Below are positions 5,001-62,903 of a DNA stretch of 64,000 bases, one piece after another. The first letter of the stretch is position 1; the number at the start of each line of letters is the position of its first letter. The notes beneath the pieces were generated by a model that made no database searches, was not told where the DNA came from, and was given only the letters and a program-made list of their open reading frames with translations. Source of the DNA: Acidobacteriota bacterium (lineage in GTDB: Bacteria > Acidobacteriota > UBA6911 > RPQK01 > CBDAPI01); NCBI GenBank assembly GCA_965205615.1, contig CBDBHK010000020.1, forward strand, positions 86,224-150,223, written 5' to 3'. A program made the position numbers and the translations under genes.

Positions 5001-5068
<68 letters not shown>

Positions 5069-5077
<9 letters not shown>

Positions 5078-7315: not shown

Positions 7316-9053
7316 CCCGCATAGATCACCGATAGGACCTCAAAAGGCCGCCCTGTTTGGTATAAAGCGTTTTGAATGAACGTTTTCACACGCCAAACGG
7401 AGGCGGTCCTTATGAGAACAGAGTGTAAACAAGCCAGGTTCGAATTTCACGGACTATTTCAACGCAAAGTGAAGGCGCGGTTCGACGGCGGGAAGATCAC
7501 CTCCGATGCAGGGGTGCTGCTGTTGCGAGAGGTCGAGAGGGGGACGGGTCTGATCGCCGGACTGGCTGAGTGTTTCAGGGATCACCGGGATCCGCGGTTG
7601 ATCGAACACACGGTCGAGGAGTTGTTGGGGCAGCGCATCTACGGACTCTGTCTGGGGTACGAGGATCTGAACGATCATGATCAGTTGCGCACCGATCCGA
7701 TGCTGGCGGTGGCGGTGAATAAGGCCGATCCGTTGGGGGAGAGGCGGCGGCAGGCCTCAGATCGGGGGAAGGCGCTGGCGGGCAGGTGTACGCTGAACCG
7801 GTTGGAGTTGACCGGCGCCGAGGTCGATGAGCAGGAGCGGTACAAGAAGATCGCGATGGACCCGGACCGGATCGACGGCTGGATGGTGGATGCCTTCGTG
7901 GAGTCCCACGAATCGGCGCCCGAGGAGATGGTGCTGGATCTGGATGCGACCGACGACCCGATCCATGGCCAGCAGGAAGGCCGGTTCTTTCACGGTTACT
8001 ACCGCCACTACTGTTATCTCCCGCTGTACATCTTCTCGGGGGAGCATCTGCTGTGCGCCCGGTTGCGGTGTTCCAATATCGATGGGGCCGCGGGATCGGT
8101 GGAGGAACTGGAACGGATCGTCGGCCGGATTCGGCAGAGCTGGCCGGAGGTCTCGATCGTCATCCGGGCCGACTCGGGCTTTTGCCGGGATGACTTGCTC
8201 CGCTGGTGTGAAGACCATCACGTGGATTACGTGATGGGGTTGGCCAACAATGATCGGCTCAAGTCAGAGAGAGCCGAAGCGATGACTCAGGCCGAAGCCG
8301 AGTTCAACGCCACCGGGCGACCGGCGCGGGTGTTCAAGGATTTCCGCTACCGGACTCGCCACAGTTGGACCTCGGAGCGACGCGTCGTCGGCAAGGCCGA
8401 GTTCCTGGACAAAGGCGCCAATCCCCGATTCGTCGTCACCTCCCTGTCGCCGGAACGCCTGGGGGCCCGCGCGCTCTACGAAGACTTCTACTGTGCGCGG
8501 GGCGACATGGAGAACCGCATAAAAGAACAGCAGTTGGGTCTGTTCGCCGACCGGACCAGCGCGGCAACGATGCGCGCCAATCAACTCCGGCTGTATCTGT
8601 CCTCCGCCGCCTACATGCTCATGCACGCCTTGCGTCGTCTCGGACTGAAGCAGACCCCCCTGGCTCGCGCTCAGTGTCAGACGATTCGCTTGAAGCTCCT
8701 CAAGATCGGCGCCCAAGTCCGCCTCACGGTCCGCCACGTCTGGATCTCCATGTCGGAAGCCTATCCCTACAGCGAGGTCTTCGCTGCCGTCGTTCGAAAC
8801 CTCCAGGCCATTCCTCTGCGCTGCTGAGGTCTGTCCCGATCAAACGCCCCCAAAAACGAAATCGTTCCATCGCTCAGGCCGAGCTCTGCCTGAATACATT
8901 CCGTCACGCTCTTCCGAACCCGAAAAACGCTCCATTCACGACCCTCCACACCACCGCATCACTCGACCTGGACCGGATCGATAGCGAAACTCTCAGAAAA
9001 CCGTTCCGGCCTGCCAAAATCACCTTCATTTCCAAATCGGTGATCTATGCGGG
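7316..9053 (+). mobile_element. IS1380-like insertion sequence, copy 1 (1738 bp), with 4-bp TTAG target duplications
   Basis: Terminal inverted repeats CCCGCATAGATCACCGAT at 7316 and its complement ending at 9053. TTAG lies at 7312..7315 and 9054..9057. It contains a single DDE transposase gene. Confidence 0.8.
7376..8827 (+). CDS. DDE transposase (IS1380/IS4-like family)
   Basis: 483 aa. It is nearly identical to the reverse-strand ORF 50476..51849. The family call rests on the fold FHGYYRHYCYLPLYIF..SIVIRADSGF and a ~1.7-kb IS with CC-initiated inverted repeats. Confidence 0.8.
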   Translation: MNVFTRQTEAVLMRTECKQARFEFHGLFQRKVKARFDGGKITSDAGVLLLREVERGTGLIAGLAECFRDHRDPRLIEHTVEELLGQRIYGLCLGYEDLNDHDQLRTDPMLAVAVNKADPLGERRRQASDRGKALAGRCTLNRLELTGAEVDEQERYKKIAMDPDRIDGWMVDAFVESHESAPEEMVLDLDATDDPIHGQQEGRFFHGYYRHYCYLPLYIFSGEHLLCARLRCSNIDGAAGSVEELERIVGRIRQSWPEVSIVIRADSGFCRDDLLRWCEDHHVDYVMGLANNDRLKSERAEAMTQAEAEFNATGRPARVFKDFRYRTRHSWTSERRVVGKAEFLDKGANPRFVVTSLSPERLGARALYEDFYCARGDMENRIKEQQLGLFADRTSAATMRANQLRLYLSSAAYMLMHALRRLGLKQTPLARAQCQTIRLKLLKIGAQVRLTVRHVWISMSEAYPYSEVFAAVVRNLQAIPLRC

Positions 9054-13911: not shown

Positions 13912-14127
13912 CGTGTTTGCCTAGCTGCTTTGGATGGCGCTTCCTGGGTCTTCTTCCTCCGCCGCAATTCCCTCCGGGCAGAGTCCGTCTGTTTCAACGT
14001 ATCAGCGATCGGTAAGAGTCGAGCAGCACGAATGCGCCCTCCCTTAGGCGGCTGGTCACTCTATAGGCAGCTCACATGAGCAGGACCAGTGGACACCCAC
14101 CTGAACCCACTGTCCAAATATACATAT

Positions 14128-14181
14128 ACGCCGGCTCCGCAGAGAAGAAGATTCTAGCACGCAGGGAGTTACAGGGCGGGG
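14128..14181. repeat. promoter-like 52-bp repeat, copy 2, upstream of the SDR gene; includes a 12-nt copy of the tRNA-Thr 5' end
   Basis: Near-identical to 5069..5122. No tRNA body follows it. Confidence 0.6.
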
Positions 14182-39420: not shown

Positions 39421-39479
39421 AGAGGACTAACCTTCGTCTATGGATCCTCGTGAGGGGTGTACCGTTCTTTCTGTAATTT

Positions 39480-44601: not shown

Positions 44602-44763
44602 TTGCTTTCTCCTTCTCTGCTATCCACGATAGTTGTGATCCAGACCGAGAAGCCACACCGGTGGGGACAGTTTTCAGAAGTGTCACCATTCGACAGGTTA
44701 GAATTGGGCAAAGCCATCAACTGGAGTTCCCCCGGTTTCGTGGACACCTAATCCTTTGGGAGA

Positions 44764-45090
44764 ATGGAGGACACGATGCCAAGAACAAGACGAGCTTATC
44801 CACCCGAGTTTCGCCAGCAGATAGTCGAGCTTCATCGAGCCGGGCGCAGCCCCGGTGAGCTGGCCCGAGAGTTTGAACCCAACGAACAGACGATCCGCAA
44901 CTGGATCGCCCAGGCAGACCTGGATGAAGGCCGTCGTAGAGACGGCCTGACGACGGTAGAACGAGCCGAGCTGCGGAAGTTGCGCAAAGAAAATAGGCAG
45001 CTGAGGGTTGAGCGGGAAATATTGGCAAAAGCCGCGGCCTGGTTCGCACGGGAGAGCGATCCGATTTCCAAGAAGTCTTCAGGTTCGTGA
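44764..45090 (+). CDS. IS3-family transposase OrfA (HTH)
   Basis: MPRTRRAYPPEFRQQIVELHRAGRSPGELAREFEPNEQTIRNWIAQ plus a leucine-zipper-like C-terminus. Confidence 0.85.
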   Translation: MEDTMPRTRRAYPPEFRQQIVELHRAGRSPGELAREFEPNEQTIRNWIAQADLDEGRRRDGLTTVERAELRKLRKENRQLRVEREILAKAAAWFARESDPISKKSSGS

Positions 45091-45474
45091 AAGTGAATCA
45101 GGCCGACTATCCAATCACCACCATGTGCCGTTTGCTGGGTGTCTCCACCAGTGGCTACTACGCGTGGGTCGATCGCGGACCTTCGACTCGAGATGAAGCG
45201 AATGCTCGTCTTCTGGAAACAATCAACGGGATCCACCAGCAAAGTCGTCGGACCTATGGAGCTCCCCGCATTACGGCGGAACTTCGAGAGGAAGGTCACC
45301 TGGTGGGCAAAAACCGGGTGGCCCGACTGATGAAAGTCGCCGGCATTGAAGGCGTTAGCCGCAGACGCAAGACACGCACGACCCTGAGAGGCCAAGACAG
45401 CCGTCCGGCTCCGGATCTGGTGGAGCGAAACTTCCAGGTCAGCCGCCCCAACCGACTGTGGGTTGCAGACATCA
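45087..45474 (+). CDS. IS3-family transposase OrfB, exon 1 (ends ..RLWVADI-)
   Basis: YGAPRITAELREEGHLVGKNRVARLMK… NRLWVADI, then interrupted. Confidence 0.8.
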
Positions 45475-46096
45475 GTGTGCCGCAGCAAGCGGCGTGAGAG
45501 ATGGGAGTAGGCCTCCCGCAACCGGCTTGCAGGAGCAGGTTGCAAACCACCGTAAGTGGCTGTGGTCAAAAGCCGCGGTCGTGAGCGTTACGGAAAAGGT
45601 GCTCTAGAAGCATCAGGTGTGGATCAGGAAGACGAACACAAGTGAACCACCGTTCAAGTGCCGAAAGGACGAGATGGTGTCGAAACCGGGGAGTTGATGT
45701 TGCCCCGGGACGAATCTGGCGGAAACCTGTCTACTGGCCAGGTGGCACCCGGCATAGAGGTGGCGTGAGCTTGATCTGGGCTCTCATGTTGAACTGCGGG
45801 AACCTGGAGCAACGATGCTAAGAGAAAGGCACAAGCAGAGAACCTGCGAGGCCGACAGTATCGAAGCGTTGCCCAGGGGCGGACAAGCTCGTAGTAGCGA
45901 TGAGGCTGTCGTAATGGCAGCGGAGCGAAGGGGCTTGGTCACTCGGCTACAGACAAGCGGCCAACTGCTAGGCAGGAGGAGCCCTTGAAAGTAGCAAAGC
46001 CATTTTGTGGCTTGAGTGATAGGAGCCGGATGAGCTGAGAGGTTCACGTCCGGTTCTTGGAGGGGCTGGGGGTGAGACTCCCCCGGCCTACTCAAC
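45475..46096 (+). ncRNA. ORF-less group II intron (622 nt)
   Basis: The 5' end is GTGTG. An EBS1 loop TGATGT at 45695..45700 sits inside hairpin CCGGGG…CCCCGG and is complementary to the exon-1 terminus ACATCA. Domain V at 46023..46056 (GAGCCGGATGAGCTGAGAGGTTCACGTCCGGTTC) carries the AGC triad and a GAGA tetraloop. Domain VI has a bulged A at 46090, 7 nt from the 3' end. Removing the intron restores the IS3 consensus [32 protein letters not shown]. Confidence 0.8.
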
Positions 46097-46557
46097 CGTA
46101 CGTGCCGAGTTGGGCAGGTTTCGTCTACCTGGCCGTAGTGGTCGACGCTTTCAGTCGTCGAGTGGTCGGCTGGTCGCTCAGAAATGATCTCAAGACCCGG
46201 CTAGTGACCGATGCCCTGCAAATGGCACTTCAAGAGCGTGAATCCAACGGGGTGATCCATCACTCGGACCAGGGGACGCAATACACGTCGATCGAGTTCG
46301 GGCTGCGCTGCAAGAGAGCCGGCATCAGACCCTCCATGGGCTCGGTCGGTGACTGTTATGACAACGCGCTGTGTGAGAGCTTTTTTGCCTCTCTGGAGTG
46401 TGAACTGATCGACCGGCACAGCTTCCGCAGCAAGCTGCAGGCCAGGCTTGCTGTCTTTGACTACATCGAGGGCTTTTACAACCCTCACAGGCGGCACTCG
46501 TCACTGGACTATCTGTCGCCGATCAACTATGAATCGAGGCACTCAGATGTGGCTTGA
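46097..46557 (+). CDS. IS3-family transposase OrfB, exon 2 (DDE integrase core)
   Basis: …[27 protein letters not shown]… HHSDQGTQYTS… DNALCESFF…. Confidence 0.8.
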
Positions 46558-46629
46558 TTCGAAAGCCGTAAACTGTCCACAAAAGTGGGGTAACTTCAAA
46601 CTGGAGCTGCGCACGAAACGGGCCCCGAA

Positions 46630-47729: not shown

Positions 47730-48497
47730 CTATTGGAGCTGAGGGTCGAAGTGCACCTGGACCGAGGACGGCCCCAGGGGCTCCAGTCGGAGTTTCTTGC
47801 CTCCTTCAATCAAGGCTTCAGATAGCTTCAGCAGCTCATCCCTGATCAGCTTCCACCGATCTTGAAAACGCCGAATCTGCCAAACGTCTCCAGGGGAGGG
47901 GATTCCATCCGCGTCAGCGTCGATCACCAGGATTTCTATTTCATCGCCTTTTATTACCAGCGTGGCACCCCAAAAGAAATCTGGGCGGATTTCGATCCGC
48001 TCTGGAACAGGCTCTTCCTGCTGGTCTTGTTTTTCCGGCCATCCGGCGGTGAGGTGGTACAGTTGTCCTTCTCCGAGCAGATCGACATTGCTCCATTGAG
48101 CCTGCCTGGTCGACCAACGGCTGGAGCGGATCAGCCTGTCGTTGTAAGGGTCCCCGTCTCCGTTCTTGTCAACAAAGAGATTCCAAGGAGAATGGGGGCG
48201 GTCTCTCTTGATCCCTAGCCTGATCTCGGTGCCAGCTATCTCCAGTCCGGCTTGATTGTTTGTTACCGTCACGACTTTTGGTTTGGCCAGGTTGCTGGGG
48301 ACGCGCGGACCCCCGATGGGGGTGAGTGAGAGCTCAACGGTGGTTGCCTCTGAACCGGAAATGCTGTCCGGAGACTGATCGAAGCTCGAGTAAACCAGCT
48401 TCGGCGTCACCTGTCCGCCTTTGTCAATATGTACGTGCAGGATCCGGTCGGTCTCAACCCAGGGAGCGTCAAGCCTGCGGACTTCCTCCTGTCTCAA
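47730..48497 (-). CDS. hypothetical protein, possibly 5'-truncated by the adjacent IS
   Basis: 255 aa with no recognised domain. Its frame stays open through the IS terminus at 48525, so the native start is uncertain. Confidence 0.45.
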   Translation of the reverse strand: MRQEEVRRLDAPWVETDRILHVHIDKGGQVTPKLVYSSFDQSPDSISGSEATTVELSLTPIGGPRVPSNLAKPKVVTVTNNQAGLEIAGTEIRLGIKRDRPHSPWNLFVDKNGDGDPYNDRLIRSSRWSTRQAQWSNVDLLGEGQLYHLTAGWPEKQDQQEEPVPERIEIRPDFFWGATLVIKGDEIEILVIDADADGIPSPGDVWQIRRFQDRWKLIRDELLKLSEALIEGGKKLRLEPLGPSSVQVHFDPQLQ

Positions 48498-48888
48498 GAG
48501 GGAGTCGTCTCCCTCCAGCCTTAGCCCGCATAGATCACCGATTTGGAAATGAAGGTGATTTTGGCAGGCCGGAACGGTTTTCTGAGAGTTTCGCTATCGA
48601 TCCGGTCCAGGTCGAGTGATGCGGTGGTGTGGATGGTCGTGAATGGAGCGTTTTTCGGGTTCGGAAGAGCGTGACGGAATGCATTCAGGCAGAGCTCGGC
48701 CTGAGCGATGGAACGATTTCGTTTTTGGGGGCGTTTGATCGGGACAGACCTCAGCAGCGCAGAGGAATGGCCTGGAGGTTTCGAACGACGGCAGCGAAGA
48801 CCTCGCTGTAGGGATAGGCTTCCGACATGGAGATCCAGACGTGGCGGACCGTGAGGCGGACCTGGGCGCCGATCTTCAGGAGCTTCAA

Positions 48889-50527
48889 CCCACATTCACC
48901 ATATAGGACCCCAAGATTGCTTGTCTGAATCGATGTAAACTACTATAATTAAAGGAGATATAGCACATAAAGGGGGCAAGGAATGGCTCACCCCAAGGGT
49001 GAAGGTGTGAAGGTCGGTTTTGATGGCAGTATCAGGCTTGAGTTTCATGGTGCTAAGGTCACATCGGATGCCGGACTTCTCGCCTATCGTGATCTGGATG
49101 AGGCGTTGGGTTTATTCGATAGTGTGCCCTTCGTGTTTCACGATTCGCGGACCGGGCGCAACATCCAGCACCACCTCACGGCCTTGATGCGTCAATCGGT
49201 ATACAGCCGTCTCGCTGGCTATGAAGATGTCAACGATGCCCATCGCTTATCGGTTGATCCGACGATGCGAAGGATCACCGGAAAGAAGCTCGACGATAAG
49301 AATGCCGCCAGCGCCAACACGATGGGTCGATTTGAGACCCAGATGCTGTCCGTCGAGAACAACCTGCAAGCCCTTTCGGAAGTCAATGGTCGATGGGTGG
49401 AAAGAGCGCTGCAGAAAACAACTCATCGACGCATCATTCTGGATATGGACAGTTCAGCTAGTCCGGTCCACGGCGAGCAAGAAGCCTCTGCCTACAACGG
49501 GCATTTCGGATGCACTTGCTACCATCCGCTGTTTTGCTTCAACCAGTTCGGAGATTGCGAAGGTTTCATGCTTCGGCCCGGCAACGTGCACAGTGCGGAC
49601 CGTTGGAAGGAGATGCTGGAACCAATCGTGGCTCGGTACGAGAAGAAGAAAGTCCGCAAATACTTTCGGGGTGATGCAGCCTTCGCCAAGCCAGAGATTT
49701 ATGAATACTTGGAGGAGAAGGGCTTTTTGTATGCCATCCGGCTTCCCGCCAACCAGGTGCTTCAAGAAAAGATCGAACACCTGCTGACCCGACCGGTGGG
49801 GCGCCCACCCAGAAAACCCGTTGTTTGGTTGGCCGATTTCAAATATCAAGCCGCCAGTTGGGACCGGCCTCGTCGGGTGATTGCCAAGGTCGAGTGGCAT
49901 CGCGGCGAACTCTTTCCGAGAGTCGGTTTCATCGTGACCAACAGGAGCGCACGAGCCCAAGGGGTGGTTCACTTTTACAACGGTCGCGGCACGGCTGAGC
50001 AGTGGATCAAGGAAGGCAAGTATGCCTTGAACTGGACGCGGTTGTCCTGCCAGCACTTTGTCCCGAATCAGGTGAGGTTGGCTCTGTTTGTTTTGGCCTA
50101 CAACCTGGGCAATTTTCTGCGCCGTCTGGTCCTTCCCAGAAGAATCAAACACTGGTCCCTTCGAACCCTATTGGCCAAGTTGATCAAGATCGGAGCGAAG
50201 GTGGTTCACCATAGTCGAATCGTGACGTTTCAGATGGCGGAAGTCGCGGTCAGCAAGGAGGTATGGGCCGAGATGTTATCTCGGATTGACCGCTTGAGAT
50301 GGATCAGAGCCTAGCACCAAGTGTTTCTGATCGAATGGGTGGAGAGGTGTCTCCACTGATCAGATTTCGGCAAAGGCGCCTGGATAACTCTGGGCTTAGA
50401 GGCCCTTTTCAGGCGGAAAGATGCCGAGGGAATCGTTGACGCGAGGGTGGAGGGCTGATAAGTTTTGATCATTCATCACCGGGAGGTCAGAGGAAATCGG
50501 ATCCGAAGTTGATATGAGGAATGTCGG
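48889..50527 (+). mobile_element. second, distinct IS1380-family element (1639 bp) nested inside copy 2, with a 5-bp TTCAA target duplication
   Basis: Terminal inverted repeats CCCACATTCACCATAT and CCGACATTCCTCATAT. TTCAA at 48884..48888 and 50528..50532 occurs only once in the uninterrupted copy 1. Confidence 0.8.
48983..50314 (+). CDS. DDE transposase (IS1380-family, distinct from the 7376..8827 type)
   Basis: 443 aa. IRLEFHGAKVTSDAGLLAYRDLDEALG…YEDVNDAHRLSVDPTMRRI is homologous to, but diverged from, the other IS1380-like transposase. Confidence 0.85.
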   Translation: MAHPKGEGVKVGFDGSIRLEFHGAKVTSDAGLLAYRDLDEALGLFDSVPFVFHDSRTGRNIQHHLTALMRQSVYSRLAGYEDVNDAHRLSVDPTMRRITGKKLDDKNAASANTMGRFETQMLSVENNLQALSEVNGRWVERALQKTTHRRIILDMDSSASPVHGEQEASAYNGHFGCTCYHPLFCFNQFGDCEGFMLRPGNVHSADRWKEMLEPIVARYEKKKVRKYFRGDAAFAKPEIYEYLEEKGFLYAIRLPANQVLQEKIEHLLTRPVGRPPRKPVVWLADFKYQAASWDRPRRVIAKVEWHRGELFPRVGFIVTNRSARAQGVVHFYNGRGTAEQWIKEGKYALNWTRLSCQHFVPNQVRLALFVLAYNLGNFLRRLVLPRRIKHWSLRTLLAKLIKIGAKVVHHSRIVTFQMAEVAVSKEVWAEMLSRIDRLRWIRA

Positions 50528-51849
50528 TTCAAGCGAATCGTCTGACACTGAGCGCGAGCCAGGGGGGTCTGCTTCAGTCCGAGACGACGCAAGGCGTGCA
50601 TGAGCATGTAGGCGGCGGAGGACAGATACAGCCGGAGTTGATTGGCGCGCATCGTTGCCGCGCTGGTCCGGTCGGCGAACAGACCCAACTGCTGTTCTTT
50701 TATGCGGTTCTCCATGTCGCCCCGCGCACAGTAGAAGTCTTCGTAGAGCGCGCGGGCCCCCAGGCGTTCCGGCGACAGGGAGGTGACGACGAATCGGGGA
50801 TTGGCGCCTTTGTCCAGGAACTCGGCCTTGCCGACGACGCGTCGCTCCGAGGTCCAACTGTGGCGAGTCCGGTAGCGGAAATCCTTGAACACCCGCGCCG
50901 GTCGCCCGGTGGCGTTGAACTCGGCTTCGGCCTGAGTCATCGCTTCGGCGCTCTCTGACTTGAGCCGATCATTGTTGGCCAACCCCATCACGTAATCCAC
51001 GTGATGGTCTTCACACCAGCGGAGCAAGTCATCCCGGCAAAAGCCCGAGTCGGCCCGGATGACGATCGAGACCTCCGGCCAGCTCTGCCGAATCCGGCCG
51101 ACGATCCGTTCCAGTTCCTCCACCGATCCCGCGGCCCCATCGATATTGGAACACCGCAACCGGGCGCACAGCAGATGCTCCCCCGAGAAGATGTACAGCG
51201 GGAGATAACAGTAGTGGCGGTAGTAACCGTGAAAGAACCGGCCTTCCTGCTGGCCATGGATCGGGTCGTCGGTCGCATCCAGATCCAGCACCATCTCCTC
51301 GGGCGCCGATTCGTGGGACTCCACGAAGGCATCCACCATCCAGCCGTCGATCCGGTCCGGGTCCATCGCGATCTTCTTGTACCGCTCCTGCTCATCGACC
51401 TCGGCGCCGGTCAACTCCAACCGGTTCAGCGTACACCTGCCCGCCAGCGCCTTCCCCCGATCTGAGGCCTGCCGCCGCCTCTCCCCCAACGGATCGGCCT
51501 TATTCACCGCCACCGCCAGCATCGGATCGGTGCGCAACTGATCATGATCGTTCAGATCCTCGTACCCCAGACAGAGTCCGTAGATGCGCTGCCCCAACAA
51601 CTCCTCGACCGTGTGTTCGATCAACCGCGGATCCCGGTGATCCCTGAAACACTCAGCCAGTCCGGCGATCAGACCCGTCCCCCTCTCGACCTCTCGCAAC
51701 AGCAGCACCCCTGCATCGGAGGTGATCTTCCCGCCGTCGAACCGCGCCTTCACTTTGCGTTGAAATAGTCCGTGAAATTCGAACCTGGCTTGTTTACACT
51801 CTGTTCTCATAAGGGCCGCCTCCGTTTGCGTGTGAAAACGTTCATTCAA
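50528..51849 (-). CDS. DDE transposase of IS copy 2, C-terminally truncated by the nested insertion
   Basis: The ORF-track frame 50476..51849 matches the 7376..8827 protein up to …QCQTIRL. It then reads into the nested IS terminus. Confidence 0.75.
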
Positions 51850-51855
51850 AACGCT

Positions 51856-53214
51856 TTATACCAAACAGGGCGGCCTTTTCAGGTCCCATCGGTGAGAAAT
51901 GGCGGCTAGAGAGGATACCAGTTCCTGGGCTGCCTTTGAGAACCCGGGGATTAGCCGATACCCAGGGTAGATCGGCCGCTCCGTGTCTTCTGCGTTTCGC
52001 AACGCAGTCAAGACGAGGAACTTTACCAGTGAAGCCTGGAACTCCTCTTCACTTGAGAATGCAACTTCCAGGTGCGGGGACCGCTCATACAGTCCGGCGA
52101 TCTGCTTGACCGCAAGGTCCGCGTAACCTAGCAGCGCCTCTGGATGAAACAGATCGCTATGTCGAGAGAGCGGCCGGTATTCCGGTTGTCCCCCAGGGCG
52201 CTGGATCGGCATGGGATCGTTGATCAACGCAGCGGCGAACGCAAAGGCGTCCTCATCAACAGACTTTGCACCGGCGATCAAGACGAGCCGCCACGCGAAG
52301 TACGCTGGAAGCCCGGCGGAAAAACGAAGTCCCGAGAGCCCGTCGCCAACGGAGACCAACGCGCCAGCGATTCGTAGCACGGCACGTGCGCCAGGGGGCC
52401 AATCCTCTGACGCTAAACCACTCGCCAGAAGCTCGGTGCCCGTCATCAGGGGCGCGAAAGCGCTCTCGAATCGGAGCGCTTCTCCTGCGATCTCGTCGCT
52501 CTGGATCTGACCGCCTTCGCGCAGAGAGCTAAGCGAGCTGACGCGACCTGGCACGTCCGCCTGTATCTCCCGGACAGCTAGACGAATCAGACGATTCAGC
52601 GTTCGTGTGTCCCGCGACGACGCCAGCCCCATGCCAGCCTCGAACCATGAGGCTTCGGGCTCCACGGCCCCGAAAGGAGAGGTATCCTTCAGCACAGTCA
52701 ACGCGCGATTGGTCGTCCGGGGCGGCGCACCGTGGCTACCGAACAACGATAGAGCGTCCTCCAAAGTGTCCACTCGGCATTCGATGTCCTCAATCCGTGC
52801 ATCTGACATCGGCGGCTTCTCGCGTCCTGAGGGATTCTCCAGGAAGTCGCTGACCGGATTGTCCGCCCTGCTCGGATCTCGGTCTACGTCTGATAGCAAG
52901 TCAGCAAGCTGCCGGGTGAGTTCCGCGCATCCCTCCGACGTACGCCAGTCGTAGACATGAGTAGCATATGACCGGAGATCGAAGGGAATGTCCTTTCGGT
53001 CTTGCGCAATGAGTATCGTCCGGTTCCTAAGAACGTGGCGTACGCCAAGCTCGTAGAACACATTCGGATTCCGATCGGTGAGGTCGGCCAGAACCACCCA
53101 GGCTGCGTCGAGATCCTGAACGATCCCCTTGATGAGATTGCCGCGTGTTGCGGTCGATCGGCGGCACTCGTAGCCCGCAGCTTCGACAGCAGGCCGTATG
53201 ACCTCCTCGAACAC
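51856..53214 (-). CDS. hypothetical protein with an N-terminal nucleoside 2-deoxyribosyltransferase-like / TIR-like domain; the native C-terminus is replaced by IS-encoded residues
   Basis: N-terminus VVLADLTDRNPNVFYELGVRHVLRNRTILIAQD (the family pattern h-ADLT..NPNV-YELG-AH). The last ~15 aa (AISHRWDLKRPPCLV) are encoded by the terminus of IS copy 2. The IS630 left end lies 17 bp upstream of the start. Confidence 0.55.
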   Translation of the reverse strand: MFEEVIRPAVEAAGYECRRSTATRGNLIKGIVQDLDAAWVVLADLTDRNPNVFYELGVRHVLRNRTILIAQDRKDIPFDLRSYATHVYDWRTSEGCAELTRQLADLLSDVDRDPSRADNPVSDFLENPSGREKPPMSDARIEDIECRVDTLEDALSLFGSHGAPPRTTNRALTVLKDTSPFGAVEPEASWFEAGMGLASSRDTRTLNRLIRLAVREIQADVPGRVSSLSSLREGGQIQSDEIAGEALRFESAFAPLMTGTELLASGLASEDWPPGARAVLRIAGALVSVGDGLSGLRFSAGLPAYFAWRLVLIAGAKSVDEDAFAFAAALINDPMPIQRPGGQPEYRPLSRHSDLFHPEALLGYADLAVKQIAGLYERSPHLEVAFSSEEEFQASLVKFLVLTALRNAEDTERPIYPGYRLIPGFSKAAQELVSSLAAISHRWDLKRPPCLV

Positions 53215-53231
53215 CCGAGTCCACTCGTCCC

Positions 53232-54398
53232 TAGTGTACTGTCCGGAAAGTTCTTGTAGTTAATAGTCAGGGTACTTTTCTATCCTTGGGCATGGCAAGA
53301 CCACATATTCGACTCGATCTACCCCAACAACACAAAGCAATTCTACAGTCCTGGCTGCGGGCCTCCAACACCAAAAGAATCCTCGCCGAGCGAGCCCAGA
53401 TGATCTTACTGTGCGGGGACGGACTCACAGCAATTGAGGTCTCCCAAAGGCTGTCCAAGCGCCTGGGCAGCATACAGAAGTGGCGAAAGCGCTACCTTGA
53501 GGTGGGGCTATCAGGGTTGGAGGATCAGCCCCGTTCGGGTCGACCACGGCGACTATCGCCAGCGAAGGTACGAAAAATTCTCAAGGCCACCGTGCAGACC
53601 ATCCCCAGGGAATCGACTCATTGGAGCCTGCGCCTCATGGCAGAGTATGCCCAAGTCAGCAAACATCAGGTGACTGAAATCTGGAAAGCCGCAGATCTTA
53701 AGCCCCACCGGATTCGCTCTTTCAAGATCAGCAACGATCCTGATTTCGCCGAGAAGGTGATCGACGTGGTGGGCCTGTACATGGACCCGCCCGACAACGC
53801 TTTGGTTTTGTCTGTAGACGAAAAAACTCAGATTCAGGCTCTGGACCGAACCCAGCCCATGCTTCAGCTCAAACCCGGGCAGGTCCAACGCAGAACCCAC
53901 GATTACAAACGCCACGGGACGGCCAGTCTGTTTGCCGCCTTCGACGTGGCCACCGGTGAAGTAATGGGCCGAATCACGAAACGGCATCGGGCCATAGAGT
54001 TTTTAGCCTTCTTACGTCAGATCGAGCAAGTCGTCCATCCAGATCTGGACGTTCACCTCATTCTCGATAACTCGAGCACTCACAAGACCCAGAAAATCCG
54101 AAACTGGTTCCTACGACGCCCACGTTTTCATCTCCACTTTACTCCTACCAGTGCTTCCTGGTTAAACGCTGTCGAAACCTGGTTTTCACAGCTTGAGCGG
54201 CGTTCCCTTTACCGCAACTCTTTCACTAGTGTTCAAGAGTTGAGGAACGAAATACGAAGATATATTCGAGTGCATAACCAACACCTGGCCAAGCCCTTTA
54301 AGTGGCGGGCCAACGCTACTTCGATCTTAGACAAGGTCGAAAGAGCTCAAAGATCCATCGATCAATGTTAACAACAGGAATTTCTCGGACAGCACACT
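53232..54398 (+). mobile_element. IS630-family insertion sequence (~1.17 kb)
   Basis: Terminal inverted repeats TAGTGTACTGTCCGGAAAGTTCTTGTAGTTAATA and TGTTAACAACAGGAATTTCTCGGACAGCACACTA. A single transposase gene lies inside. Confidence 0.8.
53286..54371 (+). CDS. IS630-family transposase
   Basis: 361 aa. A helix-turn-helix N-terminus and a DDE core (…LDNSSTHKTQKIRNWF… TPTSASWLNAVETWFSQLERR) typical of IS630/Tc1. Confidence 0.9.
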   Translation: MGMARPHIRLDLPQQHKAILQSWLRASNTKRILAERAQMILLCGDGLTAIEVSQRLSKRLGSIQKWRKRYLEVGLSGLEDQPRSGRPRRLSPAKVRKILKATVQTIPRESTHWSLRLMAEYAQVSKHQVTEIWKAADLKPHRIRSFKISNDPDFAEKVIDVVGLYMDPPDNALVLSVDEKTQIQALDRTQPMLQLKPGQVQRRTHDYKRHGTASLFAAFDVATGEVMGRITKRHRAIEFLAFLRQIEQVVHPDLDVHLILDNSSTHKTQKIRNWFLRRPRFHLHFTPTSASWLNAVETWFSQLERRSLYRNSFTSVQELRNEIRRYIRVHNQHLAKPFKWRANATSILDKVERAQRSIDQC

Positions 54399-54530
54399 AG
54401 TACACGATTGCGAAGTCGAGAAGGGCATTATGACGAAGCAAGTCCGTCCACCAGATCGGTCGGATTGTTCGAGGTCTTTAGCCACCGTTAACGCCAGTCG
54501 TCTGGTGGCCGAGCGCCCCAGCCGCCGAAA

Positions 54531-54821
54531 TCACCCCTCCTCGTTAATCTCCGGGACGGGTTGGATTATCAGTTTCTCCTTCTTCAGATGCAGTTCCCTG
54601 AACCCTGCGACAACGGAAGCCAAGAGCTCAAGCTCATCCCTGCTAACCTGGCTCTTGTCACGGCGGTAGCGCCTTGCCGCAGCATAGACATCCTTCGCTT
54701 TGAGGAACTTGCCGGCCTTAGATTTCCAAACGAGGATGTCTCGTTTTCCGTTGGGCGCTAGGCCGCGATCGAATCCGAAAACAGAGTTCGGGTCATCGAA
54801 GACCTGGGGAGGTTTGGGCAC
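54531..54821 (-). CDS. small hypothetical protein (96 aa). Its start and first ~20 codons lie in a 60-bp segment duplicated at 54937..55000
   Basis: ORF only. No family recognised. Confidence 0.3.
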   Translation of the reverse strand: MPKPPQVFDDPNSVFGFDRGLAPNGKRDILVWKSKAGKFLKAKDVYAAARRYRRDKSQVSRDELELLASVVAGFRELHLKKEKLIIQPVPEINEEG

Positions 54822-54825
54822 CTGG

Positions 54826-54936
54826 CCAAGCCCTTTAAGTGGCGGGCCAACGCTACTTCGATCTTAGACAAGGTCGAAAGAGCTCAAAGATCCATCGATC
54901 AATGTTAACAACAGGAATTTCTCGGACAGCACACTA
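54826..54936 (+). repeat. duplicated 3' terminal 111 bp of IS630 (copy of 54288..54398), bracketed by a 60-bp direct repeat
   Basis: Identical to the IS630 right end through …CACACTAG. The flanking segment GGCCGCGATCGAATCC…GGTTTGGGCA occurs at 54767..54826 and again at 54937..55000. Confidence 0.8.
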
Positions 54937-54968
54937 GGCCGCGATCGAATCCGAAAACAGAGTTCGGG

Positions 54969-55827
54969 TCATCGAAGACCTGGGGAGGTTTGGGCATCCG
55001 CCTGTCTCATCAGGTAGATCGCCTCAATGATTTGATCTTCCGATACAGAGTCCCCTCGGAGCAATCTAGCCATAATGCTTTGGATCCTGACAAGATCTGT
55101 GACTCCAAAGACCCGGGTGTAAGCGGCCAGATCGGGTTCTGTTGGGCGGCCCAGGTGGCGACGTTGCAGATGCGTGAGCATCTCGTGAAGGAAATGAGCA
55201 AGCGCATTACAGCCTCCCTCCCCGGTGTCTTTGGGAAAGAAGGTCATCCCAGTTTCCTGATGCGTGAAAAAAACCTGAGTGTCCGCCCGGATCACTGAGA
55301 ACACACAGCATGTCAGCCCTGGGTCGATTCTCCGTCAGCTTTTGCCTCAACCTCTTGAGAGAGACATCGGACCTAAATGCAAAACCCGCACTCAGGATGC
55401 CAGACGATCCTTGGCTACCACTTTGTTCGAGGAAGTTCGATTTCTCGGCAAGACGGCGCACGCTTTCGGCCTTCAAGCCGATATCTCTTAGATCTTGAGC
55501 CCTCAGCGTTGACTTGACCTCGATTGTGGCCTGCACTGACTCAACGAGGATGATCTTCCCTCTCTGCCCCCGATCTCCTGCCAGAGGCGAGTTTGCACGA
55601 TCGCACACGATTACATCCTGCTGCTTGCTCCATTCGTCGTGCGCGTTTACAACCAAACCCGTACACACCCCATATCGACCGTGCAACTGCTTCTCCAGGA
55701 AACGGATCAGGATATCTTCTCGAATGTCGCCTTTAGTGCCTGGATGAGGTACGGGCAGATCTCGGTCGAACTCGGCAAGCATGGCCTTTCGATCAGCTTC
55801 CAGAATCTCTTCAATACGACGGGACAT
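54969..55827 (-). pseudogene. NERD-like / PD-(D/E)xK restriction-endonuclease-fold protein, apparently frameshifted
   Basis: ORF 55207..55827 has GTKGDIREDILIRFL… DVIVCD… IILVESVQATIEVKS, giving D…E-V-K spacing. An overlapping out-of-frame ORF 54969..55304 continues downstream. Confidence 0.45.
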
Positions 55828-56006: not shown

Positions 56007-56083
<77 letters not shown>

Positions 56084-56210: not shown

Positions 56211-56435
56211 ATGAAGACAGTCCAGATTAGCGCTCGAATCGACGGGACGCTCAAGCAGGCAATTGAGAACTATTGCCGTTCGCGCGGCATCGTGATCAAC
56301 CATTTCGTCCAGGAAGCACTGTTCGATCGACTCGAGGAGTTGGAGGACATCGAAGATCTCAAGAGAATCCGCCACGAACCGACCCGCCCTCTTGCAGACG
56401 TCCTGGCAGACCTGAAGCGCGATGGCAAGCTATGA
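56211..56435 (+). CDS. ribbon-helix-helix (CopG/RelB-like) antitoxin
   Basis: 74 aa. MKTVQISARIDGTLKQAIENYCRSRGIVINHFVQEALFDRLEELEDIEDLKRI. It overlaps the downstream toxin gene. Confidence 0.75.
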   Translation: MKTVQISARIDGTLKQAIENYCRSRGIVINHFVQEALFDRLEELEDIEDLKRIRHEPTRPLADVLADLKRDGKL

Positions 56436-56685
56436 AATCGAAATCACCCGGACAGCAGAAAAACGGTTCAGAAAGCTGCCCAGCCAGGACCAAGGCCGGT
56501 TAGCGAAGGCACTCCTGGCGCTGGCCACAAATCCCCTGCCCCGCGGAGCCAGAAAGCTCCAGGGCTACGAGGATGTCTTTCGTATCAGGGTGGGTGCCTA
56601 TCGGATCCTCTACAGCATTGAAGAGCGCAGGCTGATCGTAATCATCCTCAAGATCGGACATCGGCAAGATATATACAGCCGTTGA
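56422..56685 (+). CDS. RelE/ParE-family type II toxin
   Basis: 87 aa. YEIEITRTAEKRFRKLPSQDQGRLAKAL… YRILYSIEERRLIVIILKIGHRQDIY. Confidence 0.8.
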   Translation: MASYEIEITRTAEKRFRKLPSQDQGRLAKALLALATNPLPRGARKLQGYEDVFRIRVGAYRILYSIEERRLIVIILKIGHRQDIYSR

Positions 56686-56797: not shown

Positions 56798-59700
56798 TTA
56801 CCTTGGGGGCTCCAGGACAGGGAAGGCCGTCAGGGTTCCCACGTCTCCTGGAAACGGATTGGAAGGGTCGTCGTTCTGGAGCAGGGTCACGGCGATGATC
56901 GGGAAGGGGCTCGAAATAGCCAGCAGACCTCGCATCTCGTCGATTCCCTCTACGTCCGGAAACAACTGGGTTACGAATTGAGCGGTGTGCTGGCCGGCCA
57001 GCAGTTCCAGCTCCCGGGTCGCTAACTCGGCTCCCGACGCGTCCTCGAGTCTCAGCTCCATGAATCCGCCCCCTCCTCCTCCGGCCGGACCCGGCACCGG
57101 GTTGGCAAGAGCGACACCCGTCTCGGCGTTGCCGGTGGTGTCGACGAACAGGAAGAAGCTGGTCCCTGGCCGCGACGCCGGCACTCCAGATTCGGTCTCC
57201 AGGAGCCCCGAGGGAAGATCAACCCTGGAAAAAACGGCTGAGCCGCCCAGGCCCTCCTCGGAGGTCACCCGCGCGTAGCCGGCCTGTATGGCCGCTTGGC
57301 CGCTGGTTTCCAGGACCCTGGACTGCCCCGATCCCAGCTGAAAGTTAAACGTCGAGTCGGTTCCCAGGCCGTCTATCCTGAGGACCATCGGATCCCCGTT
57401 GGGGTCGAAGACGTCCAACTGGACCGGTACCTGGCCGGCGGCCACGTTGGCCAGGTTGATCGCCGTCTGCAGTCCAATCGGCCCCGCCTGCCCGTTTCCG
57501 ATCTGGGCAAAAAAGAACTGGATCGGTATCGCGCCCTGTGGTTCCGGCCCCAAAAACTCGGGAGCTCTCCCCTCCAGCACGGGGAAGGCGGCCAGGGTCG
57601 GGACTTCCTGGGGGAATTCGACTCCCGGGGCATCATTCTGTCGCAAGGTGACCAGCGCGATCGGATCCAAGCTCCCCACAGTCAGGACGCCCCGCATCTC
57701 CGGGGCCTGCTCGACATCCGGGAAGAGCTGGGAGACAAAGGCGGCTTGATGCCGGCCCGCCCCCAGTTCCAGAACCGTCTCCCCCAGCAGGGTGAATTCC
57801 GGGTCGAAGAGCTTGAAAAACATCTCGCCCGGGAGGCCTGTCGGGGAGCTGCCTGCGCGAAAGGTCTGCTCCGAAGGAAAGACCTGACGATCGACGACGT
57901 TGACGATGGCCAGCCCCGTCTCCAGGTCGCCGAGCGAGTCCACGAACAGAGTCGCTTCCTGCAGCCACTCCGACGCCGGCACCCCAGCCTGGTAGAGGAT
58001 CGTCCCCGTGGGCACGTCCCGGCGTGTGAAGATCCCCGTCACGCCGATGCTCGCTCCACCCCGGATGCGAGCGTAGCCGGCCTCGATTGCGCCGGTGCCC
58101 GAGGTCGTCAGATTCCATGTCTCTCCAGGTCCCAGGCTTGCTGAAACGGACGAGACCTTGTTTTCTCCAGCCGGATCCTGACCATTCAGGTCCAGCTCCC
58201 ACCGTCCTCCTGTGGGATCGAAGAAATCGATCGTGAAAGCGGCGTGCCGTCTCTCGAGAGTGCTGGCGACATCGATCTCGGTGCTCAAAATGATATTGCC
58301 GGTCTGACCGTTCCCTACCTGGGTGAGGTACTGGACGTGCTCGAGGGACTGCAGCTCAAAGGCACCGATATCCACGGCGGGGCCGAAGACCCGGTCTTGC
58401 TCGTTCAGGTCGAGGTCACCCAGGCCGCCCGGGGGATCATTGTTGCCGGCATTGATGCCGGGGGAGCCGGCCAGCAATCGATAGTCGCCGTTTTCAGGAT
58501 CGGCGAACAAGGGATCGACGCAGATCAGGTTATTGTTCCCCGGCAATCTCTCGGGGTGCGTCAGGTCCGTTCCATTCCCGTAAACAATGGTATTGTCCAT
58601 CCCGGCGAACAGGAACCGGATGCCGTTCTCTGCGTTGTTGGCGATGGTCAGGTTCGTGAGTTGGATATCAGGGCCGTCACCATTGATGCCGTTCTGGAGG
58701 CCATCCGCAATCAGTGAATCCGTAAGGGCGAACGACGCCTCGAAGGCGCTGAGGTAGACCTGTGCCGAATTGCTGCTCTCGGTTCCCGAGTTGTCCAGCC
58801 AGGTGTTCCTCCTGGCCGTGAGCTGGCTCCCGCTGCCGGCTGAAAAAAAGCTCCGGCACCCCTGGGTCTCCCCGCCCCCTGAAACCGATTCCCCCGCATA
58901 AAGTTGTCGTGGAACTGGACCTGAGCGTTCTCGAATGCATCGATCTCGGCGGCCCCGCCGCTCACATTGCCCTCAGAGATCACAGTGTTGTTGAGAAAGA
59001 CGTTGTCCGTGATCTCGAGCGTTGTTTCGCCTGTGCCTCCTGCCGAAAGCCCGCCTCCGATGGCGCATTCCGTCGCGGCACTCCACCACATTGTCCTCAA
59101 ACCGGTTGTTCAGGATCTGAATCGATGAGTTCCCGGTCGCGAAGAGATTCAGTCCACCACCCACCGAGTTGTGCAGAACGGAACGGGCCTCGTTTCCGAT
59201 GAACCTGCAGGAACTGACCTCAACACTTGCATCCTGGCCGGGCGAGATTTCTACGGGCCCGCCGGCTGAACTGCTGCCCTCGGCAACGTTGCCCTCAAAA
59301 ATACAGCCGCGCATCACGAGACTGGATGCGTCGTTGACGTCGGCGGTGATGGCTGACGCAAAAGGCGCTTCGGAAGATCCGTCGTCGAGCCCACCCCTGT
59401 TATCTGTGAAATTGCAGCCAATAATCTCAACGGTCGCGGTGCCGGAAGCGATCAGAAACATTGCCGCCCCCGCCTGCTCGCTGAACCCTTCGGTAAGCGT
59501 CAGATTCTCCAGCCGCAGCTCTCCGCTTCCGATGGCGCTGACGGACAGTATCTCGCTGCTGGTCCCACCGCTAAGGTACGTCAGCGAGGCACCCGGCGTC
59601 ATTTCGCTGAAAGCACCGTTCCATCCCCCCGAAATGGTCAGGGAGCGGTTGTCGTTCACGGCCACACTGGTTTCCCCGTCGTCGAAGACTCCCTCCTGGA

Positions 59701-59854
59701 TGCGGATCTCGTTGTCACCGCCCACTACAACCGCAGCGGTAACAGCGGACTGGAGGGTGGTGTGTGTTCCGGCCGGTCCGACCGTGAAGACATCGCCGAA
59801 CACGAGCGTGGCGGACAGCAGTAAAGTCATTGCGAAGCAGCAGAAACGGATCAT
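56798..59854 (-). pseudogene. secreted right-handed parallel beta-helix protein with two C-terminal ~250-aa repeat modules, paralog A, with at least two frameshifts
   Basis: The signal peptide and beta-helix N-terminus (ORF 58973..59854) fall out of frame into ORF 58711..59100, then resume as ORF 56798..58600 (…DPLFADPENGDYRLLAGSPGINAG…DIGAFE, followed by QVGNGQ… modules). It is collinear with the 59851..62903 paralog. Confidence 0.7.
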
Positions 59855-62800
59855 GGCGAGGTCTCCTCGAGTACTGGAAAGGCAGTCAAAGTCCCGATGT
59901 CCTGGGGAAAGGCAGTCGCCGGATCGTCGTTCTGAAGCAGGGTCACGGCCACGATCGGCACCAGACTCGAGACTTCCAGCAGGCCTCTCATCTCGTCGAT
60001 CCCTTCGACCTCGGGGAAGAGCTGGCTGACGAACTGGGCGGTGTGTTGACCCGTTCCCAGTTCCAGCTCCCGCTCGGCCAACAGCTGACCGGCCATATCC
60101 AGCAGTTTCATGTCGATCAAAGCCATCTCACCGGCGGGCACGGGACCGGGATTGGCCAGGGCCAGACCGGTGTCGGCGTCGCCCGTGGTGACCACAAAGA
60201 GGGAAAAAGAGTTGAGCGGACGTGCCGAGGGCACTCCGGATTCGGTTTCCAGAATCCCGCTTGGGACATCTATCCTCCGGAAGACCGCCGAACCCCCGAC
60301 TCCCTCCTGCGTGGAGACGCGCGCATAACCGGCTTTGATACCCCCAAGCCCATCCGTCCGCACCACCCTCGACTCGCCTCGGTTCAAATTAAAGTTGAAA
60401 GAAGAGCCCGAGCCGAGACCTTCCAGGGTTAAGACCAGTGGATCTCCCGAGCTTTCAAAAAAATCGATCTGTACGTCACCGTCCTGGAAAATCGTATTGG
60501 CAACGCTGAGAGAGGTCTGAAGACCAATCCCGCCCAGCTGTCCGTTGCCGATCTGGGCAAAGTAGTAGATGTCGGGGTCGATACCGGAAGGCGTCTGGCC
60601 GGCTGGTACAGGCGACCGACCGGAAAGGACCGGGAAGGCAGCAAGAGTGGGGACTTCATCGGGATAGTCCAGCCCCGGCCTGTCGTTCTGGCGCAAGGTC
60701 ACCAGCGTAACGCAGTCAGTGCCGTCCATGCACTCTGCGGTCAGAACGCCCTGCATCTCCAGAGCCTCTTGCGACTCGGGGAAAAGCTGGGAGACAAAGA
60801 GCGCCTCGTGCTCTCCCGGCTGCAGCAGCTTCTGTGTCTGATCGATCTGATTGAACTCGGCGTCATAGAGCGTCAGGGTCAGGTCCGCATCCCTGATGAA
60901 TTCCGAGGGATCAATGGGGTTGACCATGGCCACACCGGTTTCGAGATCACCCAGAGTATCCACGAATAGTGTCGCCGACCTGACCCCTGCACCACTAGAA
61001 GCAGGGATTCCCGCCTGATAGAGGACCGTGCCGCTGGGGCCGTGTCGCCGCGTAAAGATGCCGGTCACGCCAGTGTTTTCGCCGCTTCGAATACGAACAT
61101 AGCCTGCTTCTACGTCCCCAGTCCCGAAGTCTCCAGGCTCCAGCTCTCGCCCGGATCCAGCAGGACAGAGACCGAGGACAGTCTGTTTTCCCCGGCCGGC
61201 AGTTCTCCCTTCACGCCTACCTCCCAGGGAGCCCCCGAGGAGTCAAGAAACTCGAGGGTGAAGCCTTCGGCTCCCTCACTTGCCGTGCTCGCAGCATCGA
61301 TCTCGGTGCTGAGGACAATGGTGCCGGCCTGACCATTCCCGACCTGGGCAAGGTACTGGATGGTCTGATCGGAGGGGGCGACTTCATAAGCCCCGATATC
61401 CACCCGGCCGCCCCAGTCCCGATCCTCCCCGTCCAGGTCAAACTCTCCCAGACCTCCGGGTGGGTCGCTGTCGGCGACGTCAACCGCAGGGGAGCCGGGC
61501 ATGAGATGGTAGTCGCCGTTTTCGGCGTCCACAAAAAATGGGTCGGTTTCGACCAGGTTGCTTCCAGTCTCTGTTCCCTCATCCGGAGTGGAATTGCTCC
61601 CATTGTTGAAAACGATTGAGTTGTAAAAACTCATGGTTCCGACTCTGAACGTTGAAATCGCAGACCCTGCGTTATCGGCAAGCGTGAAGTTTGAGAGACG
61701 AAGAATTGACTCCTCGTGATCGGTTATGCCACTAATCCCTCCTGCGTTCGATCCGGCAACCACCGAGTCTCTCATGATCAGTGCCGAGGAGTTGGCGGAG
61801 ATAAGGGAAAGACTATCTGACCTCTGGTTAACGAGATCCAGGGTTTGGAACCAGAAGTTCCGCTCCGCTGCAACTCGAGCTTCGTCTCTGAGCCAGATCG
61901 CAGCACCCGGGCCGCTTGCTGAGCCCTCTCCCATGGCCTGGTTGTCGACGATGGTGTTGTAGGAAAAGCTCCCTTCCGCCTGACCCTCTACCTCAAGGTA
62001 GACACCCGCACCCGTGCTGGAATTGGTGGAAGTCACCGTACGGTTGCTCCGAAAATCGTTGCCTTCAACTAAAAAACTCGACGTGTCCCGAGCGGCCATT
62101 TCCATTCCACCACCGGCAGTCGTAGAGCCGCCCGAAGTCACCGTGTTGTTCCTGCAGGTGTTCCCGGTCAGAGTCAAACCACTGTTGTCTTCCAGGAAGA
62201 CTCCGATCGCCCCTCCCCCGGCGCTCCTATCCTGGCTCTCGACCAGGTTGTCGTGGATGCTGTTGTCACGTACGGTGACCGTCGAGGTTCCCCGTGTGCG
62301 CAGGTTGACCGTGGCGCTTGCATTGTTGACGGCGTCAATACGATTACCGTATATCTCGCAGGAGTCGACGATGAGGTGGGTGTCCCCCCGCAGGAGGGCG
62401 TGGATGGCCGAGCCTCTCATCTGGGAGTTCTGATCATTTCCGACCAGGTTCTCGACGATCTGAAGATCCAGCAGCTCAACCTGGCTCTGCTGACAATCGA
62501 TTCGGATGCCCGCTCCCTCTTCCATGTCAAACCCGTCCCGCACCGTGAGGTTTTGGATAGAAACCACGGAACCGGTTCCAATTCCCGAGATATCGATCAC
62601 GCGGCTGGCCATGTCCCCTGACAAGGCTGTAAGAGAAGCATCCTCAGTCTGAACATCGAAGGTGTCGTTCCAGCCGCCGCTGATCACCACATCACCGGTC
62701 AGATCCTGTGCCGGGACAACCACAGTCCCGCTGAACATGCCTTCCTGCACCCGGATCTCATTGTCCCCTCCCGTGGCGACCGCCGCGTCGACCGCGGACT

Positions 62801-62903
62801 GCACGGTGGCATGGGCTCCGGAGGGGCCCACCGTGAAGACGTCGGCGAGCAACGGCGTGAGACTAAACTGCAGAGCAAAGCAGAAGCAGAGGATTCGGGA
62901 CAT
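59851..62903 (-). CDS. secreted right-handed parallel beta-helix protein with two C-terminal repeat modules, paralog B (~1010 aa), with a single frameshift near 61110..61130
   Basis: ORF 61110..62903 has a signal peptide MSRILCFCFALQFSLTPLLA, beta-helix repeats, and ends at …DPFFVDAENGDYHLMPGSPAVD… then QVGNGQAGTIVLSTEID…. ORF 59851..61068 continues after a G-run. Paralog A is continuous at this point (TSGTGAIEAGYARIRGG…GIFTRR). Confidence 0.7.

Follow-up and report, generated by a model that had tools for sequence, protein, structure and literature searches.

The locus considered here lies in a 64,000-nucleotide stretch of an Acidobacteriota contig (CBDBHK010000020.1, positions 86,224 to 150,223; 'the window' below), and centres on a 452-aa open reading frame (ORF) at 51856..53214 on the reverse strand. 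The best overall explanation, to which a probability of about 0.6 is assigned, is that this ORF belongs to a single gene disrupted by insertion sequences (ISs), and that the intact product, with an N-terminal domain resembling nucleoside 2-deoxyribosyltransferases (NDT) and TIR domains, acts alone against phages in an abortive-infection type of defense. In place of two genes, the locus has a single accessory gene in disrupted form. By analogy with known systems, the intact protein is probably a candidate single-protein abortive-infection enzyme; the gene in this organism is a pseudogene with no present function, almost certainly dead here. An initial annotation, made from the letters of the window, had read the locus as a two-gene operon torn apart by ISs: its coordinates for the 452-aa ORF and for a second, 255-aa ORF agree with the window's ORF list, and its domain call and its account of the damage done by the ISs hold up broadly; the operon itself is refuted.

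The 452-aa ORF covers the middle part of a gene about 530 codons long. When an IS630-family element and one TA are removed, the frame runs upstream without a shift to '...GGRTCFVIMPFSTSQSCTRDEWTR', directly followed by VFEEV, with a GTG at 54485. The restored N-terminus, 'MAKDLEQSDRSGGRTCFVIMPFSTSQSCTRDEWTR', aligns with the N-termini of intact homologues drawn from a collection of 5.8 billion proteins; these start 'GRICFVIMPFSSSATCTEAEWTQIFEEVIKPA' and are 490-530 aa long, the best being 60% identical. Because the homologues begin like the restored N-terminus, the IS630 lies inside the gene, at about codon 36, and not 17 bp upstream of it, where the initial annotation had put it. At the other end, homologues carry some 55-61 further C-terminal residues beyond the break; when 30 homologue tails were compared with the window by tblastn, they matched only down to 51907, and the last ~61 codons were found nowhere in the window. 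The final 16 aa of the ORF (AAISHRWDLKRPPCLV) are encoded by an IS1380-family element, a replacement that had been recognized from the start. The gene thus carries two breaks, one made by the IS630 and the other, close to codon 470, by an IS1380-family element sitting at a CTAG.

Sister strains bear this out. The corresponding loci L086 and L092 lack the IS630 and are 99-100% identical to the window across its junction. The L086 copy of the gene is 100% identical at the nucleotide level to that of the window; another IS1380-family element sits at the very same CTAG, with a perfect CTAG duplication, and the missing 3' end of the gene, '...VTDPDYLDSVSQVFDRNGAQLRNTWKDLAQKANEAVLGSGYW...', stands directly after it. 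From L086 the predicted intact form, about 530 residues, is reconstructable. The same-species cluster contains eight versions, none of them intact and each a fragment of at most 459 aa. At least six distinct lesions can be told apart: the IS630; breaks after VRHVLR, near LASSRD and near RPGGQP; a deletion of ~78 bp in L092; and the CTAG site.

The first ~150 residues of the protein form a flavodoxin-like domain of the NDT/TIR N-glycosidase superfamily, for which N-glycosidase activity is predicted. The flavodoxin-like motif first pointed out in the 452-aa ORF, VLADLTDRNPNVFYELGVRHVL, is present. The PADLOC profile PDLC00733 (labeled 'Effector' and 'TIR') matches the window protein with E 2e-10, and with E 8.5e-12 once the N-terminus is restored; it also matches five homologues (E range 2e-10 to 8.5e-12). 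The fold was searched with an AlphaFold2 model of one homologue, P0001 (pLDDT 86), using Foldseek against PDB and BFVD. The model matches both the flavodoxin-like TIR-type fold and the NDT-type fold: TLR1 TIR (7nt7; probability 1.00, TM 0.45, E 0.064), human DNPH1 (8qhr_B; TM 0.60, probability 0.98), CMP/hmCMP hydrolase in BFVD (E 4.5e-5) and, also in BFVD, viral nucleoside 2-deoxyribosyltransferases (TM 0.56, root-mean-square deviation (rmsd) 3.8). Joined to other C-termini, the domain occurs widely across phyla. Among 63 distant relatives of it, PF05014 matches four (best E 2.8e-8) and PF10137 (CAP12/Pycsar TIR) two; their fusion partners include TPR-S / MAP3K_TRAF_bd (eight proteins) and Macro (four proteins). 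Fusions to TPR-S and Macro domains are typical of conflict systems. The profile match, the fold matches and the relatives that reach PF05014 and PF10137 together uphold the original NDT/TIR-like call, not by the route predicted for it: hits to PF05014, PF15891 or TIR had been expected, and neither the 452-aa protein nor its close homologues gives any.

Within this domain, an R, N-x-x-Y-E-L-G-x-x-H and P-x-D (P-F-D) are invariant, the Glu in FYELG among them, and a conserved DNPVSDF linker follows. When a profile of the relatives is aligned with DNPH1, 'ADVViADLTdrNPNVFYELG' is placed on 'ADVVVAEVTQPSLGVGYELG' (GVGYELG) with E 0.16-0.8. This suggests, at the level of sequence, that the invariant Glu may fall on the Glu of the DNPH1 YELG motif. 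We take the latter to be the nucleophile of DNPH1; this agrees with the 'glycosyl-enzyme intermediate' named in entry 8qhr.

Beyond the linker lies a C-terminal domain of ~340 residues, modeled by AlphaFold2 from the window's own sequence with high confidence (pLDDT 92, pTM 0.89) as all-alpha with one beta-hairpin. Foldseek found no credible PDB analogue (best E 0.28, TM <=0.35). The early statement that the remainder of the protein matches nothing recognized is thus borne out by profile and fold searches alike.

Intact members of the family number at least 383 in metagenomes, mostly from Chloroflexota. Twelve loci with full-length members were surveyed, and neighbors within 8 kb were scanned with PADLOC. 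Around these genes are found a complete Shango system (SngA/B/C); a Pycsar cyclase with PycTM (locus L003); type I and type II restriction-modification genes, PD-T4-6, BrxH and DrmD; and many transposases together with a prophage-like segment. No neighbor is conserved across the 12 loci, except for the synteny of two of them, L008 and L009. The pattern is that of a free-standing gene of defense islands that moves horizontally, and the accessory, possibly defensive, setting first proposed for the locus is seen in these defense-island and mobile contexts.

In the preferred explanation, the helical C-terminal domain would restrain the N-glycosidase head and release it on sensing a phage cue; the activated head would then cleave the N-glycosidic bond of NAD+ or of another nucleotide, which would arrest the cell and abort the infection. 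The nearest architectural precedent is Swarozyc (bioRxiv 10.64898/2026.05.01.722283): there, defense requires an auxiliary domain, activation comes from the phage portal, and a conserved Glu is indispensable. Like the Swarozyc protein (KpSwz, a DUF4062 TIR-like NADase), the window family is a single polypeptide with an N-terminal domain on the TIR/NDT border, a conserved Glu and a C-terminal auxiliary domain, and both occur in defense islands without an obligate partner. The analogy is one of architecture alone: the window family has no DUF4062 match in Pfam scans (E<=10), has motifs of its own (MPF..NVFYELGxRH..PFDL..DNPVSDF), and its C-terminal domain is unrelated and unclassified.

Other defense systems share the head and differ in the rest. 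PDLC00733, the best profile match of the window protein, links it to the TIR effectors of CBASS and Pycsar, as do the common motifs NV-x-[FY]-E-L-G and P-[FS]-D-[LI]; however, the 12 loci show no conserved neighbor, be it a cyclase or another producer of a signal, the lone nearby cyclase (L003) has its own PycTM effector, and neither SAVED, CARF nor any other nucleotide-sensor domain known to Pfam is present. PF10137 (CAP12-PCTIR_TIR) does not match the window protein, and hhalign against one PF10137 protein gives a probability of 21%. Thoeris ThsB, a TIR sensor and signal producer, is likewise a TIR-type domain of defense islands, but Thoeris needs a ThsA-type effector encoded adjacent, whereas the window family keeps no such neighbor across the same loci. 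Finally, the enzymes of the NDT/DNPH1/CMP-hmCMP hydrolase group (PF05014, clan Nribosyltransf) resemble the head in fold (TM 0.56-0.60), and '..ADVV-A-[DE]-[LV]-T....V-x-Y-E-L-G' aligns over the YELG motif of DNPH1 (E 0.16-0.8); in contrast to these, the window protein has no PF05014 match and has an extra C-terminal domain of ~340 aa, and the context of its family is defense and mobile, not salvage.

Several observations weigh against a role in abortive infection. The family is known from sequence and predicted structure alone. Pfam and NCBIfam give no match to the window protein, to the restored N-terminal domain or to the five homologues, with no Pfam TIR family appearing even at E<=10; a sequence-profile search of PDB with the family also returned nothing significant. 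By E-value (0.06-0.5) the PDB matches to TIR and NDT structures are weak, and it is fold probability and TM-score that carry them; the DNPH1 sequence match (E 0.16) is not significant alone, suggestive only. The NDT-like head could equally act on deoxynucleoside monophosphates (dNMPs) or modified nucleotides. Two loci, L008 and L009, have the gene together with a PIN/HTH toxin-antitoxin pair between the housekeeping genes Sua5 and purD/purE, and the enrichment of the family in defense islands is an apparent one. All same-species copies found are broken.

The alternative that survives best, an unlikely one, supposes that the intact protein is a housekeeping or sanitizing enzyme of the DNPH1 or CMP-hydrolase type, acting on modified or damaged (deoxy)nucleotides, with the C-terminal domain serving to regulate or oligomerize it. 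The closest matches by TM-score are indeed DNPH1, NDT and CMP/hmCMP hydrolase, not canonical TIR domains; the YELG motif aligns with that of DNPH1; and proximity to purD and purE in two loci would suit such an enzyme. Against this stand the patchy distribution of the family and its want of conserved metabolic neighbors, the defense or mobile islands that make up most of its contexts, a best profile match to a defense-system TIR effector model, the TPR-S and Macro fusions of its N-domain relatives, and the repeated inactivation of a gene evidently dispensable within one species.

Still less probable is a second alternative, in which the roles of the two domains are exchanged: the N-terminal domain would be a non-catalytic sensor of nucleotides or signals, SLOG-like, and the helical domain the effector, for example a membrane-active one. 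The C-terminal domain is the larger of the two, is highly conserved and has a very confident predicted fold; it contains a hydrophobic helix (GLPAYFAWRLVLIAGA), and its weak Foldseek matches include alpha-pore-forming toxins such as ClyA, SmhB and AhlC. Those matches are noise, however (probability <=0.06, rmsd >30 A); the invariant YELG Glu, together with the R, N, H and D residues, argues from sequence for a catalytic head; and no signal-producing partner is conserved nearby. Both alternatives are less consistent with context and conservation than is an abortive-infection enzyme.

The family joins a predicted N-glycosidase head from the TIR/NDT border to a confidently predicted helical domain without a solved analogue, and is missing from Pfam and NCBIfam. 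It is a reasonable candidate for a new single-protein abortive-infection system, judged by the intact homologues and not by the window copy; put more narrowly, it is a candidate variant of single-protein TIR/NDT-type defense, modestly interesting. A further step, tentative and less probable than not by some distance, would make it an undescribed single-gene anti-phage system with a new all-alpha phage sensor, whose NDT-like head attacks not NAD+ but some different nucleotide, for example dNMPs or the hypermodified nucleotides of phages.

The other half of the supposed operon, the 255-aa ORF, has a different origin. A word-based homologue search with it found nothing; an exhaustive HMMER search found P0121 (E 7.5e-32), and cluster look-up led to P0135, a protein of 1362 aa; over its last ~262 residues it shares 99% identity with the 255-aa ORF plus eight codons upstream of that ORF. 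Pfam recognizes TPR, AhpC/redoxin/thioredoxin and a PD40 beta-propeller in P0135. Its residues ~880-1362 form two tandem modules of ~200 aa, 32% identical to each other, with calcium-loop-like motifs (DxDGDGDP / DADADG) and no Pfam match; the short DxDxDG-type motif of these modules also recurs in giant proteins of 2000-7900 aa. The product of the 1362-aa gene is a secreted-type TPR-thioredoxin-PD40 protein, unrelated to the NDT/TIR-like gene. Locus L085, with 97-99% nucleotide identity to the window, is colinear with it from 48524 downwards, and upstream of that point continues into the body of the 1362-aa gene.

Between the two ORFs lie two IS1380-family transposases (NF033539, E 8e-115 and 7e-108). 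The initial annotation had counted three IS insertions at the locus; three elements do exist, but they are the IS630, a second copy of an element here called IS-A, and IS-B, a distinct element nested in that copy (Table 1). IS-A copy 2 was found by a repeat search of the window, as a second copy of the element at 7316..9053. Its flanks are unequal, CTAG on the side of the NDT/TIR-like gene and TTAG on the side of the 1362-aa gene; identity to copy 1 is only 90% over its left 84 nt and complete over the next 1301 nt. Because L085 and P0135 place the 255-aa ORF in the 1362-aa gene, the two flanks belong to different genes; the unequal flanks and the mosaic left end therefore point to recombination between two IS1380 copies. 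This implies, from the sequences compared, that the exchange would have removed or relocated the 3' end of the NDT/TIR-like gene and about 1100 codons of the 1362-aa gene. An inversion between the two oppositely oriented IS-A copies, which would have carried the missing 3' end to another part of the window, was considered and rejected: the tblastn search with homologue tails was empty past 51907, and copy 1 has a perfect TTAG duplication. L092 contains the window's chimeric junction and lacks both the IS630 and IS-B, so the rearrangement predates these two insertions; IS-B landed inside IS-A copy 2 later.

These results bear directly on the operon, in which the NDT/TIR-like gene and the 255-aa ORF would be an accessory, possibly defensive, pair parted by 3.4 kb of IS insertions. 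The two ORFs are on the same strand, and are even in frame once the IS and one 4-bp flank are removed. Nonetheless the pairing is very improbable: the 255-aa ORF is the C-terminus of another protein; L085 runs upstream of 48524 into the 1362-aa gene and not into the NDT/TIR-like gene; in L086 the IS is followed by the NDT/TIR-like 3' end, and nothing related to the 255-aa ORF is present; the two flanks of the IS differ; and none of the intact homologues is accompanied by a relative of the 255-aa ORF, an outcome that the initial annotation had named beforehand as telling against the pair. Hardly credible at all is a single gene of ~734 codons split into 452-aa and 255-aa halves by simple IS insertion, for which it can be said that excision of the IS630 and the IS1380 composite with one duplication leaves one open frame of 715-734 codons: such continuity arises by chance about once in three, here across only eight codons; the homologues, at 490-530 aa, cover only 62-64% of the fusion; their last ~55 residues are unmatched in the window yet present in L086; and the downstream half belongs to P0135. 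IS-rich genomes can thus yield false operons and false fusion ORFs, in this case with both fragments even in frame. The window locus is an IS-shredded pseudogene artificially joined to a fragment of another gene, through ordinary genome decay in an IS-rich organism.

Table 1. Coordinates of the disrupted gene, the insertion sequences and the flanking features in the window
Feature	Position	Strand	Remarks
3' remnant of the 1362-aa gene	47730..48524	-	includes the 255-aa ORF (47730..48497); last ~262-264 codons; 'DxDxDG' modules
IS-A copy 2, chimeric and interrupted	48525..51905	-	inverted relative to copy 1; surviving parts 48525..48888 and 50528..51905
IS-B, distinct IS1380-family element nested in IS-A copy 2	48889..50527	+	transposase 48983..50314 (NF033539, E 8e-115)
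IS-encoded tail closing the 452-aa ORF	51856..51905	-	16 residues and stop; from alignment with IS-A copy 1 and translation
All-alpha C-terminal domain, truncated	51906..52809	-	ends at CTAG 51906-51909, ~61 codons before the natural stop
Rest of the N-terminal domain	52840..53233	-	invariant NVFYELGVRH and IPFDL motifs, then DNPVSDF linker motif
IS630-family element	53234..54397	+	transposase 53286..54371 (NF033545, E 2e-82); inserted inside the NDT/TIR-like gene
5' fragment of the NDT/TIR-like gene	54398..54485	-	likely GTG start at 54485; about 29-35 codons; first strand CFVIMPFS
IS-A copy 1, intact reference	7316..9053	+	IS1380 family; perfect TTAG duplication
tRNA-Arg(tct)	56007..56083	-	bounds the IS-rich stretch

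The family assignments of the elements rest on their transposases, ends and targets. The IS630 has a DDE_3 transposase, terminal inverted repeats read from the sequence (GTGTACTGTCCGG / GTGTGCTGTCCGA) and a TA target duplication (53232-53233 and 54398-54399). The IS1380-family elements have a DDE_Tnp_1_4 transposase, terminal inverted repeats and a duplication of 4-5 bp: TTAG for IS-A copy 1, and TTCAA for IS-B (48884-48888 and 50528-50532). YTAG targets are used by three different IS1380-family elements (window CTAG 51906-51909; L086 11356-11360 and ~9670), and the same CTAG inside the NDT/TIR-like gene is occupied by two different elements of the family in different strains. This suggests either that the elements strongly prefer this rare tetranucleotide as a target, or that one IS took another's place.

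Remains of further IS activity are scattered through the window. A 113-bp fragment of an IS630 right end, at 54821-54933, ends on a proper TA junction; on either side of it stands one copy of a 63-bp host sequence, duplicated directly and without mismatch (54758-54820 = 54934-54996). L092 lacks this arrangement, whose site is the CTAG that bears an IS-A copy in L086. Neither of the flanking small ORFs, of 111 aa and 96 aa, is closed by the duplication; the idea that these were once one gene was rejected, as removal of the IS630 fragment does not fuse them, and they remain two adjacent small ORFs. An IS3-family element at 44727-46598 is absent in L085; a 622-bp insert inside it (45475-46096) is absent in L092, as is an IS256-type (Transposase_mut) element at 39454-40784. 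Far from the locus, a 51-nt sequence that overlaps tRNA-Thr(cgt) at its 5' end stands again 9 kb away as a direct repeat, 94% identical (5068-5118 and 14127-14177); the interval contains IS-A copy 1 and rpoD. RpoD shares 63-64% identity with the closest named proteins, and the host probably belongs to an uncultured lineage related to Acidobacteriota.

The tRNA-Arg(tct) gene stands where the initial annotation had set the border of the IS-rich stretch; an att-like repeat of its 3' end, sought as a delimiter of an island, was not found. Directly downstream of it, at 55207-55827 on the reverse strand, is a gene for a DUF6602 / PD-(D/E)xK protein (Pfam E 1.7e-23; PADLOC 'PD_DExK, CAS-associated' E 7.7e-30, NucC-like effector models E 1e-22), then two orphan small ORFs at 54969-55304 and 54531-54821; the three may be a separate defense-type gene set beside the pseudogene. 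On the other side of the tRNA gene, at 56211-56685 on the forward strand, an antitoxin-like 74-aa ORF overlaps an 87-aa ORF, and the colinear L092 gene is annotated PF05016 ParE_toxin; this looks like a toxin-antitoxin pair. Beyond it, paralogous large ORFs extend over 56798-62900, with repeats 65-80% identical and ~3.05 kb apart. The 600-aa ORF at 56798-58600 among these may be another broken gene: its cluster representative has 1018 aa, and other strains carry 600-aa and 293/380-aa pieces.

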